Assembly (NCBI GenBank): GCA_964016885.1 | Contig: OZ024748.1 | Location: 14,260,001-14,324,000 of the forward strand | Direction of reading: 5' to 3' | Source of the DNA: Eledone cirrhosa | Taxonomy: Eukaryota | Length of the DNA: 64,000 nt | Part shown: positions 5,489 through 58,952 of the stretch, one piece after another | How positions within the stretch are numbered: the stretch's first letter is position 1 | Layout: the number at the start of each line of letters is the position of its first letter | The notes under the pieces: model-generated | What the model saw: only the letters and a program-made list of their open reading frames with translations | The model's database searches: none | What the model was told of the DNA's origin: nothing | Made by a program: the position numbers and the translations under genes

Positions 5489-6421
5489 CACACTCAGAGA
5501 TAATACATTTTTGTTAATGTTTCACAAACAAATTAGGAAAATATATCCCACAGAGAGAATCCGAACAACGTTGCGGTTAAGTTTGACTACAGAATCACTA
5601 GAAAATCATACACAAATATAACTGAAAAAAAACAGCAAGTGCTAAAGGAATTAGCAACTTTAGTAAAATTAGATGTTGAGAACAGAGAAGAGAACACACA
5701 CAGCAAGACGACGAAGAAGAAAAAAGAAAGGAGGAGCTGATGAGTGCTAAATACTTGTGTTTAGCACTAAATACTTATGTATTTAGCACTTCGGCTGTGG
5801 GAAGAAGTCGTGAATACGTTTTACTTTAGAAACAGCTAAATATAGCTTCCTTATATCCCGTCCGTCTTTTAATAATGGTAAAATGGTGCTTAGTCGCAGA
5901 CACAGCGTCCAGTCATCTTAATACAACTGACCAATACCGAGCCTATAAAACTGATACCAAATATATTTTCTCATTATTCACACACATATATGTATACACA
6001 TACTCACACACACACACAAATATGTGTGTGTGTATATATATACACACGCACATAAATGCATATGTATGTATGTGTATGTGTGTATGTGTGTGTGTGTCTT
6101 ATTTCCTTTCTTTTTCTCCTGCTATTATATTTCCGTGTTTTATTCTCTGATCTTGAGTAGTAGTAGTAGTAGTAGTAGCGGCGGCAGCGGTGGCGGCGGC
6201 GGCAGCAGCAGCAGCAGTGAATGCTGCTGTTACTACCCGGATAAAAATGTCAATTTTGAAGTGAGTGTTAGTGGAACAAGAGGACAGGTCAACATCCCTA
6301 ATGAACCAATTAAATAAAAGTTTGTGTAGTTGGCGGTCAGCTTAAATCCTTATAAATAAAGCAAAGCCACTTACTGGAATAGCAGCAGTCGTTATTCACT
6401 GACCAGTGGTTGGCTATCATC

Positions 6422-8767
6422 ATGCATTTGTCTATGTATTTCTGGAGAATTTTAACATTATTTTCTACAATAATTCTGTCACGGTATGTAATAACCAGTC
6501 TTGATTGTCCTTCAAAATGTTACTGTCACGGAAATAAAGTTGATTGCATTGGAGCAAATTTAACTTCTATTCCTACAAATTTACCCAAACATACAAAATA
6601 TCTATATCTCAATAATAATAATATTCAACGTTTGGAAAGTCTACCACTCCAACAACTGAAAACACTTACTCATTTATACCTGCATGATAATCAGCTTTCC
6701 CAGATTGATGAGAACACTTTTAATGCATTGCCTCAACTCTCCGTTTTGCACCTACAAAGAAATAATTTACGTTCCCTATCTCCTGGCATTTTCTCCGGAG
6801 CTTCTAGTCTTCATGATTTAAATTTGTCCAGGAATAAACTATCTGATATATATGGAACATTTAAAAATGTTTCTAGCTTACACAATCTGTATATTTCAGA
6901 AAACTCCATTCAGCATTTGGATGAAAACAGTTTTCCAGACCTTGTGAACCTGAACGTACTGGAACTGAGTAAGAATTTTTTGAAAGGACTTAATTTGATG
7001 GCCTTGAAGAATTTAAAGAATTTATCTGTTTTGAAAGTTGACCAGAACAATATTGGTGATATTAGCACACCTCTTCCTGATGACATTCCTCTTCAAATGA
7101 TGGATTTATCCAGATGTGAACTACGGAAATTTCCTTTACACATACCAAAACACATACAATATTTAAACTTAGGTATGAACAAATTGACGTCAGTCACAAT
7201 AGATAACCTGAAGAAACTGACTTCATTAAAGATTTTGATACTCGATAATAATAGAATACGGGACATTGAACCTAAAGCTTTTGGAATTTTAACAAACCTT
7301 CAGGAACTCTGGTTAAACCACAATGCAATTACACATCTCAACATATATCCACCGACTTCATTAACGTCGCTAGTTCTGGACAACAATAAAATCAAAAAGA
7401 TAGCTTTTAATATATTTCCTGACGATTCAGCCTTGCAGTCAATTTCACTGCAAAGTAATAGTCTGGCTAATATATCAGAACATGCATTTGCAGGTTTATA
7501 TAACCTTAAAGAGCTTATACTTGACAACAATCCTCTCAGCTCTATCCAGGACTTTGCTTTCTCTAAATTGCCGAAGCTAGAAATACTATCACTGAGTAGT
7601 TGTCCTCTCCGTGTTATAGAAAAAGATGCATTTCATGGACTGACGTATTTGAAAAAACTGTACATCATGTTTGTAAAAGAACCTGTAACTAAAATAGAAA
7701 ACTTCGGTGTGAATTTACCTTCTCTGGAAATATTTGATATCCAGTCAAGTCCGACGTTAATTGATCTCATTATCAATTCAGAATCATTTTTATTGACTTT
7801 AAACCAAACAGCCACTTACCTACAAGAATTTAATATTATGAATGGAGATCTCATGACTTTACCAACATATGTAAGAACTTATTTATCCGGTGTAAACGTT
7901 ATAAAGTTAGCTGGCAATCTTTGGCTTTGCGATGAAGAAATAAATATTTTTTTTGAATGGTTAGTAACAGAAGCGGACAAGTTTACACAAAAAGATAAAA
8001 TTACATGTCTCTATCCCAAGTCCCTGAAAGGTGTTCCAATATATAATTTAACTACTGAACAGGTGGAGCAATTACCAGACTTGCGTAAAAGTAAACAAGA
8101 TGGTTTTTTCAATTACCTTTATAAACAAGAGGAAAGAATAATTGTAAAAGACATGGATGAGACAACAAATAATGAACTCATCTACATAATTAATGGGGCT
8201 GTGAAATACTGTCCTGATAATAACGAACCAATCGTCACTACAAGCAAGGACTATCTTCTTAGTGGGGGGACAACTGATACATTACAGTTTACTCGAAACA
8301 TAATTGAATTCGCAAGCAAGGATTCGAATTATATGGAGAGAAATCGTTCGAAAATCAATAACAATCACAAGAGTGGTTCTGAACAATCTAAAAATTCACC
8401 GAATGGCAGAGTTGCCAAAAGCGACCAGCATTTAACACACACAAAGACAAATAACAAACCGACTTTACAGGGAAAACGTGTCGACTTTACTTCAGATATA
8501 TCTACACATTTATTGAGAACACGAATTTTTAACAAAGAAAATCAACTGCCGGATATTACAGTAAAAAGGACTATAACTACTACTACAAGTACCACGACAA
8601 CTACCATGTCAATTCTCCCAACACCTTCCTATTTGAAAGTTTGGGCATCGACAGCGTCAGTAATTACAATGGGCATCTCTTTAGCAACAGGTAGTTTGTT
8701 TTATTTTGTGCTCCGTTTTCGACGGAGGAAATCCCAGAGTAGAAATATTGAACAGTACAGTATGTAA
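6422..8767 (+). CDS. Intronless leucine-rich-repeat type I transmembrane protein (signal peptide, LRRNT, about 19 LRRs, LRRCT, Thr-rich stalk, TM, short tail)
   Basis: 781-codon ORF from ATG 6422 (the ORF track starts at upstream TTG 6410). Hydrophobic N-terminus; CPSKCYC..VDC N-cap; repeated LxxLxLxxNxI/L; NLWLCD..ITCLYP C-cap; TTTTTSTTTTT; TM segment VWASTASVITMGISLATGSLFYFVL followed by RFRRRK. Confidence 0.93.
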   Translation: MHLSMYFWRILTLFSTIILSRYVITSLDCPSKCYCHGNKVDCIGANLTSIPTNLPKHTKYLYLNNNNIQRLESLPLQQLKTLTHLYLHDNQLSQIDENTFNALPQLSVLHLQRNNLRSLSPGIFSGASSLHDLNLSRNKLSDIYGTFKNVSSLHNLYISENSIQHLDENSFPDLVNLNVLELSKNFLKGLNLMALKNLKNLSVLKVDQNNIGDISTPLPDDIPLQMMDLSRCELRKFPLHIPKHIQYLNLGMNKLTSVTIDNLKKLTSLKILILDNNRIRDIEPKAFGILTNLQELWLNHNAITHLNIYPPTSLTSLVLDNNKIKKIAFNIFPDDSALQSISLQSNSLANISEHAFAGLYNLKELILDNNPLSSIQDFAFSKLPKLEILSLSSCPLRVIEKDAFHGLTYLKKLYIMFVKEPVTKIENFGVNLPSLEIFDIQSSPTLIDLIINSESFLLTLNQTATYLQEFNIMNGDLMTLPTYVRTYLSGVNVIKLAGNLWLCDEEINIFFEWLVTEADKFTQKDKITCLYPKSLKGVPIYNLTTEQVEQLPDLRKSKQDGFFNYLYKQEERIIVKDMDETTNNELIYIINGAVKYCPDNNEPIVTTSKDYLLSGGTTDTLQFTRNIIEFASKDSNYMERNRSKINNNHKSGSEQSKNSPNGRVAKSDQHLTHTKTNNKPTLQGKRVDFTSDISTHLLRTRIFNKENQLPDITVKRTITTTTSTTTTTMSILPTPSYLKVWASTASVITMGISLATGSLFYFVLRFRRRKSQSRNIEQYSM

Positions 8768-14298: not shown

Positions 14299-15720
14299 AT
14301 TTATTAAAATAACAGATTAAAGTTTAAGCAAAGAATCGCTGCTTTCACCCTTAACGGGATTTTCTGAAACTAACAAAGTCAATCTGTAAACGCAGAAGTG
14401 GATATTTAAAAAAAACGTTGCAACCGGAAGAAGACAGGAAGACGATACTTTGGTTCGTGGAAACGTTCCCTGGCAAAGAACGGGAAAAAAAAATGAATAT
14501 AATACGTCATTAATAGGAGCGGTGAAAAACAATTACGCGCAAAGACAAAACCACGTTTATGGTATAAAACGTGGTGGTTCATAGAGACGTTATTAGGTGG
14601 TTCATAGAGACGTTCTCTGGCAATGAACAAAAAAAAAAAACGAAGATAATACGTCATATGTGGTGCGTGGAGAACAATTGCACGCAAAGACAAAACCACG
14701 TAAACGGTATAGCAGAAGTCGTAGACTAAAATTCTAATTAGGAGACCGAATGAATCTCCGCTTCAGAGTTAAGAACAAAGTAAATAAATACAATACAGAG
14801 GTAATAGAAATTAAATAAATACATACACGCATACAAATACGTACATACACAAGCATACGCGAAAACACTTACCATAGGTATACAAAATCACGCACATAAA
14901 TATGTGTGTGTGTGTATGCGTGTATACAAATAAATAAATAATTAAATAAACGTATATAAATAAATAAATACGTATATAACAAGCGCACACACATACCTAC
15001 ATGTAAATACACAAATGTTCGGAGACGTCAGTCAACCAAAACATGAAGTACACACACCCTACATACTTACGAACCTGCATACTCACACAGACGCAAAACT
15101 CCCGTATACACATAACCAAACCATATGTACCAGAAATATAGAATTATACGCCATAACATATACAATGACATATACGTACGAGAAGGTATACGTATCTTCA
15201 CAAAACATACAGGTGATATATGCAAATAAGTAATGGTATAAACATAACATATTCTTACCTACAACATCAAGACGTAAAATATCCACGTATAGATCGTAAT
15301 ATCCGTTAGGGTATAATGTGGGGCTGTAATAGAGGAAAGTTTTGTGCAATTTATGTTTACAAGCCGAAATTGCCTCAGATTTTTTGTTTAAGATGTCTGC
15401 GGCGCAGAGGTCACATGGTCTTTTATTTCCGTTATACGATCTCCCAGTGTAACTTATATTGGGTGTGGTTGTCTTTTAAACTCCATATATAAGCTGAAAG
15501 TGACGTCATATTCCTTCTTAGAGGGTAACGAAAAGAATGGGTATGCATGTAAAGACGCTGCTTGTTAGTTTCAGAAGATCCCGTTAAGGGTGAAAGCAGC
15601 GATTCTTTGCTTAAACTTTAATCTGTTATTTTAATAAATATTTGCTCTACGGTTCTTATATATTTGATATATATTTATCCTTATCTTTGGATTTTAGTCT
15701 TCAAATTTATTATTATTACT
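14299..15720 (+). mobile_element. 1.4-kb non-coding element bounded by 78-bp inverted repeats, each holding a variant HHR motif
   Basis: IR arms 14299-14376/15562-15639 differ by about 1 mismatch. A 3' tail runs to 15720. There is an internal imperfect direct repeat of about 145 bp (14452-14712). A deleted relative lies at 47065-47215. Confidence 0.7.
15567..15617 (+). ncRNA. Variant hammerhead motif (CAGAAGA core, CUU triplet)
   Basis: agttt-CAGAAGA-tccc gttaa gggt-GAA-agca gcgattctt tgct-T-aaact. Stems I, II and III all pair. Confidence 0.5.
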
Positions 15721-15852
15721 ATATATATATATGCAGAGGTTACATTCAACAAGCTTAAACATTTTTATAACTGATATAAAGCACTCAACAAGTTAGTGGA
15801 GTAAATATACAATATATTAATAAATGGAAACTATATTTATAAAACCATAATT

Positions 15853-15916
15853 ATTTTATTATATATATTTCAAGGGCGAGCAAGTTAAATTATGGTGCGC
15901 TTTCATCAGATAAAAT
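15853..15916 (-). ncRNA. Type I hammerhead motif (antisense arm)
   Basis: Exact reverse complement of 16067-16130. Confidence 0.75.
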
Positions 15917-16066
15917 ACAGATTTGTTTTATAAATAAATATTGACATACCCGGAAAAAAGACAACCTCAAAGGTTGAAATTCGCTGGATAGTCTATCCAG
16001 CGAATTTCAACCGTTGGGGTTGTCTTTTTCCGGGTATGTCAATATTTATTTATAAAACAAATCTGT

Positions 16067-16130
16067 ATTTTATCTGATGAAAGCGCACCATAATTTAACT
16101 TGCTCGCCCTTGAAATATATATAATAAAAT
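16067..16130 (+). ncRNA. Type I hammerhead motif
   Basis: attttat-CTGATGA-aag..ctt-GAA-atatatat-A-ataaaat. 7-bp stem I, palindromic stem III, AUA triplet; predicted cut after 16123. Confidence 0.75.
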
Positions 16131-16176
16131 AATTATGGTTTTATAAATATAGTTTCCATTTATTAATATATTGTAT

Positions 16177-16361
16177 GGTGGTGGATTGACAGTATCGGTA
16201 GAGGGTCAGACGCCATGCTTTCTAGCATAGTTATGTCCCTTTATGATCTGAGTTCAAATCCCGCCGAGGTCAACTTTGCCTTTCATCCTTACGGGGTCGA
16301 TAAAATAAAGTACCAGTTATGTACTGCGTAATTGCTGGCCTTGTGCCAAAAAGTAGAAGCA
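16177..16361 (+). mobile_element. Full-length SINE family 1 with 15-bp TSD
   Basis: Box A/B head and gcctttcatccttacggggtcgataaa core. TSD attaatatattgtat at 16162-16176 and 16362-16376. Confidence 0.9.
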
Positions 16362-16949
16362 ATTAATATATTGTATATATATATATAAACATAAATATTG
16401 CTCGAGCAGATAATCACAGATAATCCTTTAACTAGAACACTGTTGAATTGAAATGACACACGTCGTCTGACAGTAGTCGAAAATAGATTGTTATTGAATG
16501 TGTGGGGGCGAGTAAAAGAGAGAGTGTGTCTGTGTCTGTGTGTCTGTGTCTGTGTGTGTATGTATGTGAGTGCGTGTGTGAAATTAGCTGAGTATGCGTG
16601 TTCATGTAAGTATGCCAGAAATAAAGACAGAGAAAACTAATGAAAGAAGGAAGGAAGGAAAGAGAGAGGTAGATAATTACACATGTGAGATACATAGATA
16701 AATAGCTACAATAATAGATTAGATAGTGTAGATGAAAGTAAATATTTGTATTTCGATCATTCCATCAACAGTGACCGGTTACTTATCAAATGTATCTTAG
16801 GAAATAGATGTCAGATTCCAATATATGACCTTCCACTGTCTTAGTCTCAATCGTTATAATAGCTGCTGTCTAATGACCTCCGCAAGACATTAGAAATATG
16901 AGCTGAGGGAAAAAGTTCAGAATGTAATCATTACTGAAACGGCAAAATC

Positions 16950-25469: not shown

Positions 25470-26412
25470 AGGTTTAAATGAAATATCCGTTAACTCGGGA
25501 AACAAAGTAAGGAGTGCATCAAACTGGTTTCCAGCAGCAGCCACAAAAAATGATGGACTAACAGCACATGGGCATCTCCGCTTCACTTGGCTCGTAAGGG
25601 TGAAGTGGATTTTAGACCTGTGGGAGATTATGGACGACTTAATGCCATCACCATGCCGGACCGTTATCCTCTACCAAATTTACAAGATTTTTCATCCGTT
25701 CTGCATGGATGCAAGATATTTTCCAAAATAGATCTAATACGTGCATACCACCAGATACCCACGAATCCAGAGGATATACCAAAAACAGCTGTGACCACCC
25801 CCTTTGGTTCATTTGAATTCCTGTCCATGCCTTTTGGCTTGCGGAATGCCTCTAGCACGTTCCAATGTTTTATCGATGAAGTCATGCTTGGATTGGATTT
25901 CGTGTTTGCTTACGTGGATGATCTCCTGATAGCCAGTGACACAGCTGAACATCATCAGCAACATCTATCTCAGTTATTTCAACGTCTCCAATCGTACCAG
26001 GTCAGAATCAACCCAGTTAAATGTGTTTGGTACAGCTTCACTGGAATTCCTTGGACATCTTATAGATTCGGAAGGCATACAACCTTTGCCATCTAAGGTA
26101 GAAGTGATTCAGCATATCGCACCACCCACCTCCCTGAAACAATTATGTCATTTCTTGAGATTAATTAACTTTTATCGTAGCTTCATTCCTAACTGAGCGG
26201 ACAAGTTGTTCCCCTTGACACAGTTTTTAAAGGCTGCAAAAAAGAAAGATGCTCCTATTTCACTTTCTGCCGATGCTTTGCAGTCTTTTGAATCCATCAA
26301 GTCTAAGATAGCTGAAGTTTCTTTCCTCGCCCATCCTGTTGCAAACGCAAGACTTTCTTTATCTGTTGATGCATCCGATCATGCTGTTGGAGCAGTTGTG
26401 CAACATGCGATC
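25470..26412 (+). mobile_element. Ty3/Gypsy pol remnant (RT plus start of RNase H), frameshifted, no LTRs, inverted 5' piece
   Basis: WASPLHL, DYGRLN, FSKIDLIRAYHQIP, MPFGLRNA and YVDD motifs; frameshift near 26025; FLGH and LINFYRSFIPN (then stop); LSVDASDHAVGAV. Confidence 0.92.
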
Positions 26413-40324: not shown

Positions 40325-41261
40325 TCATCATCATCATCATCATCAACGTTTAACGTCCGTGTTCCACGCTTGCATGGGTTTGGACGGGGGTTTTCCCACT
40401 TGAGGCAAGAGTGATTGTCTTGCTCACATAGGACTGTCTGGCAGGTTTTCTACAGTTGGATGCCCTTCCTAACACCAACCACATTTACAGTGTGGGTCTG
40501 GGAGGTTTTTACCGTGTTGCCTACACGGCCACATTACAGCGTAGACTGTGTGTTTTTTTGTCGTGACACCTACACGATCTCATTTGTTTCGGCCTGGATG
40601 GTGTGGCACCAACATAACTTTACATAGAAGGGGGCGGTGTGGATGGGGTGGGGGTGGTGGGACGGGGGTGTATTTTGTTAGAGATGCCTACTGACTGTAG
40701 TAGGTTTTACTATGTATTTAGGTAAGGCGGGTCTTCTCTATTACTGAGTACCGCCAAAGGTCTCGGTCCAGTGACATTGTCTTGGTGAGGTGTAAGTGTG
40801 TGAGGTCGGAGTTTATCAGCTCGTCCCAGGTTTTTCTGGGTCTGCCTATTCCGTGGCTACCATCTATCTTTATTGCCCTGCACTTTGTTATACAGCTATC
40901 GTCCTTCATGCGCATCACGTGACCATACCAACGTAGCCTTCTCTCTAGTAAACAACATCTGATCCCTCTTATTTCTAATTTTTTCCTTAGTTCGTTTATG
41001 CTTTGTCGTTCACGTATATTACTATTACACATCCAGCGGAGCATGCAAGCTTCGTTTCTCTCTAGTCTGCGTATATCCTCTGCACACAATGCCCAGGTCT
41101 CACTGCCATGCAACATTGCTGTTCGCATGCAGGCATCGTACAGCCTGCCTTTCATTTTTAGGGAGAACCCTTTAGCGGCTAATAGTGGTATAAGCTCTCT
41201 GAACTTTTTCCACCCAGTTCTGACTCTAGCTACTGTACTTTCAGAGCACCCTCCCCCACTG

Positions 41262-41264
<3 letters not shown>
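40325..41264 (-). mobile_element. RTE-clade LINE, 5'-truncated, ORF end intact
   Basis: ORF 40718-41155 (LYDACMRTAMLHGSETWAL..GRPRKTW); (GAT)n tail at 40325. Confidence 0.93.
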
Positions 41265-41312
<48 letters not shown>

Positions 41313-41696
41313 TCATCATCATTGTTTAATGTCCATCTTCCATGCTAGCATGGGTTAGACGGTTTTGTTCCATTTGATGCGGGAATGGTCGGGAGACCGT
41401 GTCGTGCTTGTACGGGAGTGTCTCTAACAGGTTTTTTGTGGCTGGATGTCCTTTCTAACACCAACCACCTTTACAGTGTGGATTGGGAGCCTTTATACTA
41501 TATATGTACTATATATATGTATATATATATATGTATTTATGTGTGTATATTATATGTCTGTGTGTGTGTGTGTGCATAGATGTATATATATATGTGAGTG
41601 TTTGTGAGTATGTATATATATATAGTTCAAGGAGACAACAAACAGAGGTACAAATTCTTATAAGTTTCACATTCTATATTGGAAAGAGGAAAGAAA

Positions 41697-50461: not shown

Positions 50462-50787
50462 TTTTGCTGTATTTTATTTATTTATTTTTGTTTGTCATTT
50501 GTGTACTTATAATCCATGCATGGGTTTCGTAGAATTTAAATTTGACAGATTCTTGTAAATGCCACAGTCTTTAAGATACAGGGTAATGTCTGATGATTGC
50601 CTGTAAAGTTATTGAGTTATCAATAGATATATGCATAAAATGATATATGTTGGGTATAGATATAAATATATATATATGTATATATATATACATACATGGA
50701 ACAAAAGCACCAAATTTTGATTCCTTTTACAATCTGGAGATATGTTCAATATTGGACCGTAAATCCTTAGGTAGTGTTTTTATTCCG

Positions 50788-50950
50788 TGTATATATATAC
50801 GTAAATATATATATATATATATATATACATATATATAAATATATACGTAAATATATATATATACATAAATATATATATACATATAAATATATATATATAT
50901 ATATATAAATATATACGTAAATATATATATATACATAAATATATATATAC

Positions 50951-50987
<37 letters not shown>

Positions 50988-51390
50988 TATATGTACTTAC
51001 ATATATATACATACATATACATATATATAGTTATATGTACTTATATATACATACATATACATATATATAGTTATATGTACTTATATATACATACATATAC
51101 ATATATATATATAGGTATATATACTTATATATATATATTCATATATATACATACATATACATATATATATACATACATATACATATATATATACATATAT
51201 ATACATACATATACATATATATATATATATACATATATATACATATATACATATGTATACATACATATACATACCTATATATATACACATATATATATAT
51301 ACATTTACATACAAATACATATATATATATATACATACATATACATACAAATACATAAATATACATTTATATATACATATATATATATAC

Positions 51391-51430
<40 letters not shown>

Positions 51431-51654
51431 CTATATACATATATATATATATACATCTATATACATATATATATATATATACATCTATATACAGCTATAT
51501 ACATATATATATATATGTACATCTCTATACATATATATATATATATATACATATATATACATATATATACATATATATATATGTATATGTATATATATGT
51601 ATATATATAAATGTATATATATGTATATGTATATAGATGTATACATATATATAA

Positions 51655-51690
<36 letters not shown>

Positions 51691-51744
51691 ATATATACAC
51701 ATATATATATGTATATAGATGTATACAGATGTATACATATATAT

Positions 51745-51787
<43 letters not shown>

Positions 51788-51806
51788 CACATATAAATAT
51801 ATATGC

Positions 51807-51837
<31 letters not shown>

Positions 51838-51915
51838 AATATTTATATATATATATATGTACATATATATATGCACATATATATATGTATATATATGTAT
51901 ATATATATATATGTG

Positions 51916-51946
<31 letters not shown>

Positions 51947-52059
51947 ATAAGTATGTATATGTATATATTCATTTATGTATATGTGTGTATATATATATGT
52001 ATATATATATGTATAAATATATATGTATGTATATATATATATGTATATATATATGTATA

Positions 52060-52095
<36 letters not shown>

Positions 52096-52452
52096 ATTAT
52101 ATATATGTATATATATATATATGTATATATATTTAAATATATATATGCATATATATATATATGTGTATATATATATGCATATATATATATACATATATAT
52201 ACAAACATATATATATATATATGCATATATATATACACACATATATATATATGCATATATATATTTACATATATATACATATATATATATATATACATAT
52301 ATATAATTATACATATATATACATATGTATACATATATATATATATACATACATATATATTTATACATATATATATACATATATATATACACACATATAC
52401 ATAAATGAATATATACATATACATACTTATATATATACATATATATATATAT

Positions 52453-52483
<31 letters not shown>

Positions 52484-52793
52484 CATATATATACATATAT
52501 ATATGTGCATATATATATGTACATATATATATATAAATATTTATATATACATATTATAAAGATTTATATATACATATATATATATAAATATTTATATATA
52601 TATTTATATATATAATTATATACATATATATATATATATAAATATTTATACATATATATATATATATATAAATATTTATATATACATATATATATATACA
52701 CACATATATATATATATTTATATACACACACACATATATATATATATATAAATATTTATATATACATATATATATATAAATATTTATATATAC

Positions 52794-52831
<38 letters not shown>

Positions 52832-53088
52832 GAACGAGTAGGACCCCGACGTCTGAGCCGAAGCCGTTTCGACGGCTAATTCTGGACTAGTAGTCCAGAA
52901 TTAGCCTTCGAAACGGCTTGAGCTCATCCGTCGGGGTCCTACTCATTCCTATTACACACTCTACTACCCTAAGTATTGAGTACTTTGGTGTGTTATGGTC
53001 CACCTGGTTCCTTACCACATTTCCTTTGTTATATATATAAACATATATTTATATAAATATTTATACATACATATATATGTATATATAT

Positions 53089-53179
<91 letters not shown>

Positions 53180-53280
53180 CATATATATACATATATATAC
53201 ATATATATATATACACACATATATATATATATACACACATATATATATATATATATATACACATATATATATATATATAT

Positions 53281-53352
<72 letters not shown>

Positions 53353-53374
53353 GTATATATATATATATATACAC

Positions 53375-53435
<61 letters not shown>

Positions 53436-53468
53436 TATATATATACACACACACATATATATATATAT

Positions 53469-53501
<33 letters not shown>

Positions 53502-53578
53502 CATATATATACACATATATATAATATATATATATATATACACATATATATATATATATATAATATATATATATATAT

Positions 53579-53617
<39 letters not shown>

Positions 53618-53845
53618 CATATATATACATATATATATATACACATATATATATACATATACACATATATATATATATATACACATATATATACATATAT
53701 ATACACATATATATACATATATATATACACATATATATACATATATATATACACATATATATACATATATATATATACACATATATATACATATATACAC
53801 ATATATATACATATATATATATATCTTTGCACTCACATATATATC
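50788..53845. repeat. About 3-kb (TA)n/(TACA) compound microsatellite
   Basis: Directly visible; interrupted by the element at 52830-53030. Confidence 0.98.
52830..53030 (+). mobile_element. Fold-back half-hammerhead element, copy D
   Basis: Arms around aattctggacta-g-tagtccagaatt; GAAACGGcttgagctcatCCGTCggggtcc; tail ends ttcctttgtt. Confidence 0.85.
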
Positions 53846-54008
53846 TGAATGAATGTTCATAAATGTGTGTGTAGATAAGTTTTTCTATGTGTTTTATGAG
53901 AATATCAACAAAATCATACATACTATTTATTTATTTATATGTTTGCTTTGAAATAAAAATTCCAAAAATACCATATGATTGATTGATTGATTATTAACAT
54001 TAGTTTAT

Positions 54009-57530: not shown

Positions 57531-58607
57531 ATTATTTCATTTATATCAATTGATTTCTTTTTTAAATGTACAAACCAAATTGAATTCCACTTAAGAAATG
57601 AATAATATTGTCTTTTACTATTTCTTATTTTTATTTAACATTTATTTGTATATTCTATATATTTTCTAAAGTTGATCTTTGAATCATATGACAGACAACT
57701 TAGATATCTAATGGAGGAATTTCTAGCTTCTCACGGCTATTTTAAATATTGATGTGACTTTCAGAAATACATCATGGGAAAAAGTTTTTCTTGTTTCCAG
57801 TAGTCACTTGTATTCACAGAAGTATTTATTCATTCATATAATAAACTTAAAGTAATTGGCCTATTTCTGTTTTGTTTTTTAAAAATAATATGTTCCTCTT
57901 TTATATTTTATAATAAATGATATTTGTGTTAGACAGAATTTTCTATAAAAACATTATCTGTAATATTAGTGTTACTATTTATGATCCTTGTGATCTTTGT
58001 TCAATTATTACAGAAATGATATGTAATCAATTCCAATTTATTGTATGAGCCCAACATGTAAATTTATATGATGCAATTAACCTCTTACATATGGGTGTTT
58101 GTCAGCCCTTATGCTTACATATGGCAGATAAGTCCACTATACACACGCACTCACAGTCATGTTGTGGTTGTTGTGTCACATAGCAGTATGTATGTTACAT
58201 TGGTAAAACACTAACTGATACAGAACTCATATGAAGTCAAATAGTTTTATTTTATATAAATATGGCAGTTATTTATATATATATATATATATACTTATAT
58301 AAACCTACACAAACACACACACACAAAATTGAGGAGAGGGGCAGGGCAGAAACAGAAAAAATTCTTTAGAAAAAGATAACAGGTCCATGCATGTTGCCAT
58401 CTCTTGGAAAATATATATCTGTGTATATATACATAAATATGTAATCTGAGGTTTTTGAATATTAATAATAATACTCAATTCGTTTGCAATTATGCAAAGA
58501 ACCTCTTTAAGCCATGTCAGTAGAATGACGCTGTCATTCTTGCTCTTATATATATATAATATATATATATATATATTTGTTATGTAATAAACAACATAAG
58601 ATAATTA

Positions 58608-58667
58608 TTTCCTTTACCAGTGGTTTCTTGAAAGCAACCAAAATTGCTTTCATTCATCAGAATGAAA
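58608..58667 (-). ncRNA. Type I hammerhead motif (antisense arm)
   Basis: Reverse complement of 58746-58805 with one stem I mismatch. Confidence 0.7.
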
Positions 58668-58745
58668 AAATCCTGGTGTCTTTATTGACAGTAGACTTGA
58701 AAAACCACTTTTTCAAGTCCACTGTCAATAAAGACACCAGGATTT

Positions 58746-58805
58746 TTTCATTCTGATGAATGAAAGCAATTTTGGTTGCTTTCAAGAAACCACTGGTAAA
58801 TGAAA
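58746..58805 (+). ncRNA. Type I hammerhead motif
   Basis: tttcatt-CTGATGA-a tgaaagcaa ttttgg ttgctttca a-GAA-acca c tggt-A-aatgaaa. 7-bp stem I, 9-bp stem II, near-palindromic stem III, GUA triplet; predicted cut after 58798. Confidence 0.8.
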
Positions 58806-58952
58806 TAACTATCTTATGTTGTTTATTACATAACTAATAAGCTCTGTAACCTACATAGAGCACTCTTTTTTCCTGGACCTTTCCAATGGAATCACTTCAT
58901 TTATATATATATATATATATCCTAAAGTATGTCCATAGAATCATTTGATAAA

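Follow-up and report, generated by a model that had tools for sequence, protein, structure and literature searches.

The window analysed here is a 64,000-nucleotide stretch of Eledone cirrhosa DNA (assembly GCA_964016885.1, contig OZ024748.1, positions 14,260,001 to 14,324,000) and contains a 370-bp palindrome whose arms, at 15807–15991 and 15993–16176, flank a single central base. An earlier note on this DNA had described the arms as nearly identical, and they are: they differ by two substitutions and one 1-nt indel, all no more than 40 bp from the centre, and their outer 152 bp are the same. The element sits in a (TA)n target that lies at 15720–15732 on the left and at 16374–16387 on the right. 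The long arm (15733–15992, minus strand) is a 5'-truncated 3' end (pLTR) of a Penelope-like element (PLE) and includes a one-sided tail (15733–15806, minus strand) of 74 bp, compared with ∼ 89 bp in the family, 15 bp being missing here. The short arm (15993–16176, plus strand) is a second copy of the same 3' end that stops at the upstream of two putative priming sites. The locus is a known footprint of a known class, two Penelope-like 3' ends standing back to back.

The nearest gene-like open reading frame ends 7 kb upstream of the palindrome; an uninterrupted 794-codon frame at 6383–8767 (plus strand) resembles, by eye, a leucine-rich-repeat membrane protein. The window also holds two further head-to-head hammerhead palindromes in (TA)n, at 2032–2353 (tail to ∼ 2415, arm identity 83%, hammerhead-pattern matches at 2129 and 2257) and at 58574–58839 (tail to ∼ 58900, arm identity 95%, matches at 58660 and 58753). 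These two share a 72-nt tail stretch (83%) that is absent from the studied element, so they likely represent another Penelope-like family. A pair of 78-bp inverted repeats (14299–14376 and 15562–15639; 99% complementary, 1,185 bp apart) ends 94 bp short of the element; public contigs contain the repeat in very many copies, and the pair looks like a DNA transposon or MITE. Other features include ∼ 3 kb of degenerate (TA)n at 50780–53900 and, by eye, retroelement-like protein fragments at 25554–26096 and 40718–41344 (gypsy-type RT; RTE-type C-terminus).

Hammerhead motifs and a SINE within the palindrome

Each strand carries one type I hammerhead motif, as the claim of sense and antisense ribozymes had it. 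The motif of the short arm spans 16066–16131 (plus strand; core from 16074) and is mirrored in the long arm at 15852–15917 (minus strand; core from 15909). Helix I of the plus-strand motif is formed by 16066–16073 and 16124–16131, an 8-nt AT palindrome at 16115–16122 serves as helix III, and the predicted cut falls after 16123. Rfam gave no matches at the gathering score anywhere in the window, and structure prediction for the hammerhead gave a fold z of 0.22. Two changes are private to this copy, at 16098 (mirrored at 15885) and at 16103 (mirrored at 15880); an exact 27-mer with both of them has two matches in the assembly, both at the studied locus. With these two changes helix II is predicted to be weakened, to −1.0 kcal/mol from −7.7 kcal/mol in the majority type.

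Palindromic helix III had been taken as consistent with cleavage by dimers. The comparison with dimer-type hammerheads (excerpts of PMC4209133) stands, but the two motifs of the locus lie on opposite strands and therefore cannot dimerise with each other on a single transcript; the tandem element L116, described below, has two hammerheads in the same sense. According to the same excerpts, a single motif shows no cleavage and dimers cleave at a low level, and hammerhead pairs on opposite strands, 100–700 bp apart, are truncated PLEs. The studied motifs share with these minimal PLE hammerheads the type I core, the palindromic helix III, a low activity expected of a lone motif and the opposite-strand arrangement, with cores 165 nt apart. 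They differ in that the first helix II pair is A-U, conserved there as G-C, and in the two helix II/loop changes of the studied copy. The presence of one ribozyme per strand would follow from the hammerhead being inside the copied stretch, and is most likely an ordinary by-product rather than a designed RNA switch.

At the end of the short arm stands a 185-bp SINE (16177–16361, plus strand) between two copies of a 15-bp target-site duplication (16162–16176 and 16362–16376). Removal of the SINE restores the family end followed by (TA)n, which confirms the view that the SINE is younger than the palindrome. The SINE has 20 BLAST matches within the window, itself counted; motifs near 16187 and 16249 resemble the A and B boxes of the Pol III consensus, and a tRNA scan with ARAGORN gave no matches. 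Genome-wide there are 4,881 occurrences of the 16-mer that closes the arm (56 for a control), and the SINE head is found at this same site in 31 of the 4,881, compared with ∼ 1.2 expected from background density. The corresponding counts are 0 for the SINE head in reverse orientation and 9 for a motif 16 nt upstream. All 20 SINE-bearing loci that were inspected (L198–L217) are element arms, 8 long and 12 short, with duplications of 13–20 bp, and 18 of them have the same start base. The arm-end site is a SINE insertion hotspot, used in one orientation only. Target preference of RTE-mobilised SINEs has been linked to T stretches and 3' repeats (excerpts of PMC6007223).

The parent element and its copies

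A genome search with 15733–16176 as the query gave 2,211 candidates. The best 40 of the 2,211, which were scored, are all full-size with identities of 92–97%, and all 20 inspected lie within (TA)n. An exact 42-nt core occurs 209 times in the genome (control, 0), and the first 100 of these matches gave 87 loci once doubles were merged; this position sample avoids the best-match bias towards full palindromes of the 40 best-scoring loci, at the price of demanding one exact core. Pairing was assessed in 118 loci, the 40 best matches and 78 position-sampled ones. On a 273-nt reference arm, 3' ends among the 87 loci cluster at two points, near 189 for the 58 short ones and near 273 for the 29 long ones, and long-arm ends are followed by AT repeats in 44 of 46 cases among the 78 loci. 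Head-to-head arrangement was found in 85 of the 118 loci: 75 short + long, one short + short and nine with one damaged end. Many arms of the family are solo, with no partner arm, and there was no direct tandem hammerhead array among the 87 sampled arms.

The centres of the palindromes are variable, some arms overlapping and others being separated by fillers of up to 37 nt, and 176 of 209 arm-specific variants are private, so whole palindromes are not spreading as units. Two loci on C28, 124 kb apart (L006 and L008), have the same 12-nt templated filler at the centre, which may reflect a segmental duplicate or a recurring template jump. The family also includes a palindrome ten times the size, of 4.3 kb (L091:676–4990), with the ORF end in the short arm and the tail in the long one.

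Longer copies led to the parent element. Upstream sequence runs on into a common 3' UTR in 16 of the 87 position-sampled arms; L091 and L093 join ORF, UTR and hammerhead, the short arm of L091 extending into the ORF. L116 has the structure pLTR-ORF-pLTR with an ATG ∼ 50 nt beyond the tail end, and an upstream pLTR, making a partial tandem, is present in most of 25 N-terminal loci. For a possible 5' UTR intron, the single candidate acceptor, behind the tail, is variable between copies. Within the 3' UTR lies a pyrimidine-rich 23-nt tandem array, longer in some copies than in others (L091:4380–4640, L096:6100–6900).

Four loci (L091, L093, L116 and L119) link the 3' end to one ORF with RT, recognized by eye from its motifs, and a C-terminal nuclease. 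The protein pieces bear YRDD, DKT, RWR, CxCX5C, CxxC and CxH: DKT is found in P0001, the CxCX5C linker in P0002 and L093, and CxxC and CxH stand beside conserved E and N in the translations of L091 and L093. Since searches of six ORF pieces of the family against Pfam and of one piece against PDB gave no match, the clade assignment is based on these motifs. The GIY-YIG profile PF01541 weakly matched one of four homologues scanned (E 0.003, below the cut-off), none of the 20 loci returned by a GIY-YIG search of the genome holds the studied pLTR, and 30 homologues have uninformative names, many of them with PF26215.

Section 11 of PMC8557442 characterizes the Hydra clade of C-terminal EN+ PLEs by these protein motifs together with (TA)n insertion and hammerheads, and File S1 of the same paper lists a Hydra family, Hydra-1_Obim, in Octopus bimaculoides. 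The parent appears to be an abundant Penelope-like retroelement with Hydra-clade protein motifs: it inserts into (TA)n, bears a hammerhead and has DKT, CxCX5C and, in the nuclease region, CxxC and CxH. It departs from the Hydra-clade definition in that P0001 has RWR for RWK, and its 3' UTR of 1.3–1.8 kb makes the unit ∼ 4 kb. Hydra-1_Obim is listed without pLTRs, which are clear here. A Neptune/Nematis label was dropped, the CX2-5CxxC linker being absent from P0001 and P0002.

Excerpts of PMC8557442 and PMC3846280 describe EN+ PLE insertions with head-to-head inverted pLTRs, a tail at one end, a hammerhead in the pLTR, partial tandems and a microsatellite target, all of which we found here as well. 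The studied family differs in its tail of ∼ 89 bp, compared with 30–40 bp, and in that most sampled copies lack an ORF and are stubs ending close to a single fixed 5' point. Non-LTR retrozymes also have a short non-coding PLE-derived unit with a type I hammerhead but form direct tandem arrays (excerpts of bioRxiv 10.64898/2026.07.22.740005); this identity was ruled out, the studied element being an inverted pair with no fixed unit. A MITE or foldback DNA transposon was ruled out by the variable centre, the unequal ends and arms that extend into the RT ORF. A search confined to open papers yielded none on this Penelope-like family.

The fixed 5' point deserves separate consideration. Among the 87 arms, 35 stop at positions 1–4 and 24 more at positions 5–20. 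The Penelope pLTR contains a start site and an internal promoter (excerpts of PMC8557442), and therefore the fixed stop point, the palindrome centre, is likely the 5' end of the element RNA; at the studied locus, base 15992 would be its first base. Free ends show the expected A in 26 of 32 cases, followed by G in 10 and by the genomic C in 9, a cap signature that is suggestive of an RNA start, some of the G possibly coming from the partner arm. In a transcript reading through the locus the two arms are predicted to pair with each other (−280 kcal/mol, with 364 of the 370 nt in pairs), in line with the earlier proposal that transcripts of the palindrome form dsRNA. The element's own RNA, we infer, begins at the centre and contains one arm, and so would form no long hairpin.

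Two priming sites and the origin of the palindrome

We propose, with a probability of roughly 0.78, that the palindrome consists of two 5'-truncated pLTRs placed head to head in (TA)n and was made at insertion by priming on both nicked strands. Both start sites on the RNA are followed by AUAU, with which the nicked (TA)n ends would anneal. The two priming sites would lie ∼ 90 nt apart on the element RNA, the upstream one giving the short arm and the downstream one the long arm with its tail. Both cDNAs would extend toward the RNA 5' end, that is, the start site inside the pLTR for the short RNA, and the two cDNA ends would be joined via microhomology or a few extra bases. Both cDNAs would derive mostly from one source, probably from one RNA, and the downstream cDNA would have to displace the upstream one. 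The SINE inserted afterwards, as its duplication shows, at a preferred site near the end of the short arm.

The 87-locus sample contains 47 short + long pairs in which the completeness of the arms was compared; one of these pairs (L164) probably reflects a chance AT match. More of the element is present in the short arm in 33 pairs and in the long arm in 11, with three ties (p = 0.0013). In eight of the 47 pairs the long arm begins at position 176 or later, which leaves little beyond the tail; neither arm can therefore have been copied from the other, and these barely overlapping pairs fit two separately primed cDNAs. Long arms stop near the internal priming site in a small excess (5 of 47 at positions 176–205), and in the 47 pairs there is no pile-up of stops at the hammerhead cut site, the nearest long-arm stops being at 121, 141 and 143. 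Of 25 read-through copies, 22 have an AT hexamer after the tail end, and AT-rich bases likewise come after the short end. These bases resemble the target, which is why pairing with the nicked (TA)n appears plausible; a target duplication of the PLE itself is unreadable inside (TA)n.

Variants were counted in the 69 pairs whose arms share 40 sites or more (9,338 sites in all; the other 16 pairs were dropped), giving 72 mirrored and 249 single variants. The mirrored ones amount to 0.77% per site, compared with 0.06% in shuffled arms (∼ 13 times chance). The ratio of mirrored to single variants is 37/30 in helix II and its loop and 17/92 near the centre (p = 8e-8), a clustering to be expected if the variants came with the source RNAs and were tolerated in helix II and the loop. 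Palindromes are thus likely rebuilt at each insertion, mostly from one source. The near identity of the arms, which the earlier note had read as youth or homogenisation, is real, but both arms were likely copied from one source at insertion, and their identity is explained without later homogenisation. The source may not always be uniform: the arms of L159 belong to two different subfamily types within one insertion, and 31 recurrent variants are on one arm only, compared with 30 on both (4.6 on both expected at random). Some pairs may therefore derive from two RNAs or have undergone conversion by other copies.

A precedent is the Poseidon PLE, with which both strands are cut and extended in vitro, starting from two internal sites on the RNA that bound the tail (excerpts of PMC11167929). 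The studied family resembles Poseidon PAc in having two internal RT starts that bound the tail, extension of both target strands and an uncut RNA template. Poseidon PAc, however, primes non-homologously (as given in those excerpts), whereas the AUAU after both starts here matches (TA)n and presumably pairs with it. A literature search on Penelope, twin priming and inverted ends gave no paper on PLE mechanism, as judged by titles and the first parts of abstracts. In L1 elements, twin priming can give inversions, and the eight pairs in which the long arm is little beyond the tail resemble such inversions. The studied family differs from L1 in its two fixed priming sites and in a second cDNA that, as a rule, extends further and so produces an inverted duplication.

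The closest competitor retains priming at both nicks but invokes two distinct RNA molecules brought in by a dimer of the protein. It is unlikely, though deserving of attention: a dimer is predicted for the Poseidon protein (excerpts of PMC11167929), the long arm of L159 has subfamily-B variants most of which its short arm lacks (L043 is similar), and one dominant source locus per cell could also make arms concordant. Against two RNAs stand the 30 recurrent variants on both arms, compared with the 4.6 under random pairing, and the one-sided truncation, with stops at positions 84–175 in 7 of 39 long arms and 1 of 47 short arms (p = 0.02). It is less likely still that the arms of the studied copy were homogenised after insertion by hairpin or template-switch conversion. 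The two mirrored changes of this copy are found nowhere else in the assembly, and copies with tight centres have more mirrored and fewer single variants (2.7% and 1.6% in eight copies, two of them of an older subfamily, compared with 0.6% and 2.8% in 31 copies), the two counts being weakly anticorrelated overall (rho −0.23, p = 0.06). However, mirrored variants concentrate in helix II and its loop and not near the centre, unlike the spread of the single ones; 56 of 70 are common to other copies; and most copies keep several of the single-arm differences counted above. Snap-back self-priming, in which a nucleic-acid end folds back and copies itself, has been proposed for inverted pLTRs (excerpts of PMC3846280) and would account for the mirrored variants and for junction fillers that copy nearby element sequence (L006, L008, L143 and L162). 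We regard it as improbable, given that completeness mostly favours the short arm, which has no tail and therefore could not template the long arm, and that the scant overlap of arms, or its absence, in the eight pairs with a tail-like long arm makes such copying impossible for those eight.

That the palindrome is a functional unit, in which sense/antisense ribozyme dsRNA masks cleavage and feeds ADAR or Dicer, was part of the original suggestion and would agree with the very stable hairpin predicted on read-through and with the intronless LRR-type ORF upstream on the plus strand. Yet there is no fixed unit: centres and arm lengths vary, many arms are solo, arm-specific variants are mostly private and helix II of the studied copy is predicted to be weak, which together make this reading very improbable. 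Least credible of all, to the point of being negligible, is a fold-back chimera of the assembly. No read record bridges the centre of the studied copy at 99% likeness; one contig with four other letters spans it at 92% and probably comes from a sister copy, and RAD-seq reads gave family pile-ups only. Nevertheless, both unique junctions (15736–15772 and 16150–16200) are matched with no other letters in short-read contigs of a public run, the arms differ at three places and have unequal ends and a tail, and the same build recurs at 85 loci. Priming on both nicked strands at insertion thus remains our preferred explanation.

Implications for Penelope-like elements

Published work already describes opposite-strand hammerhead pairs, as well as pLTRs that stand head to head in (TA)n with a tail on one side; what the studied family contributes is a SINE hotspot, AT pads for priming and a truncation bias that is one-sided. 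The formation of inverted ends in PLEs is described as an open mechanistic question in the excerpts of PMC8557442. The two fixed 3' ends, the one-sided truncation bias and the mirrored variants give predictions that are testable in the published in vitro assay.

A tentative extension, to which we give somewhat less than even odds, is that Hydra-clade PLEs in general twin-prime on one RNA, with (TA)n ends on two AUAU pads ∼ 90 nt apart, the downstream cDNA displacing the upstream one and the capped pLTR start fixing the 5' end. If so, solo arms, plain inversions and full palindromes would all result from a single one-RNA twin-priming rule, and twin priming would supply the genome with hundreds of hammerhead hairpins that also offer a site at which SINEs preferentially insert. 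We caution that, in animal genomes, no functional story is needed to explain hammerhead pairs on opposite strands. The studied locus is an ordinary retroelement stub, and its family is a natural record of how Penelope-like elements build inverted ends.
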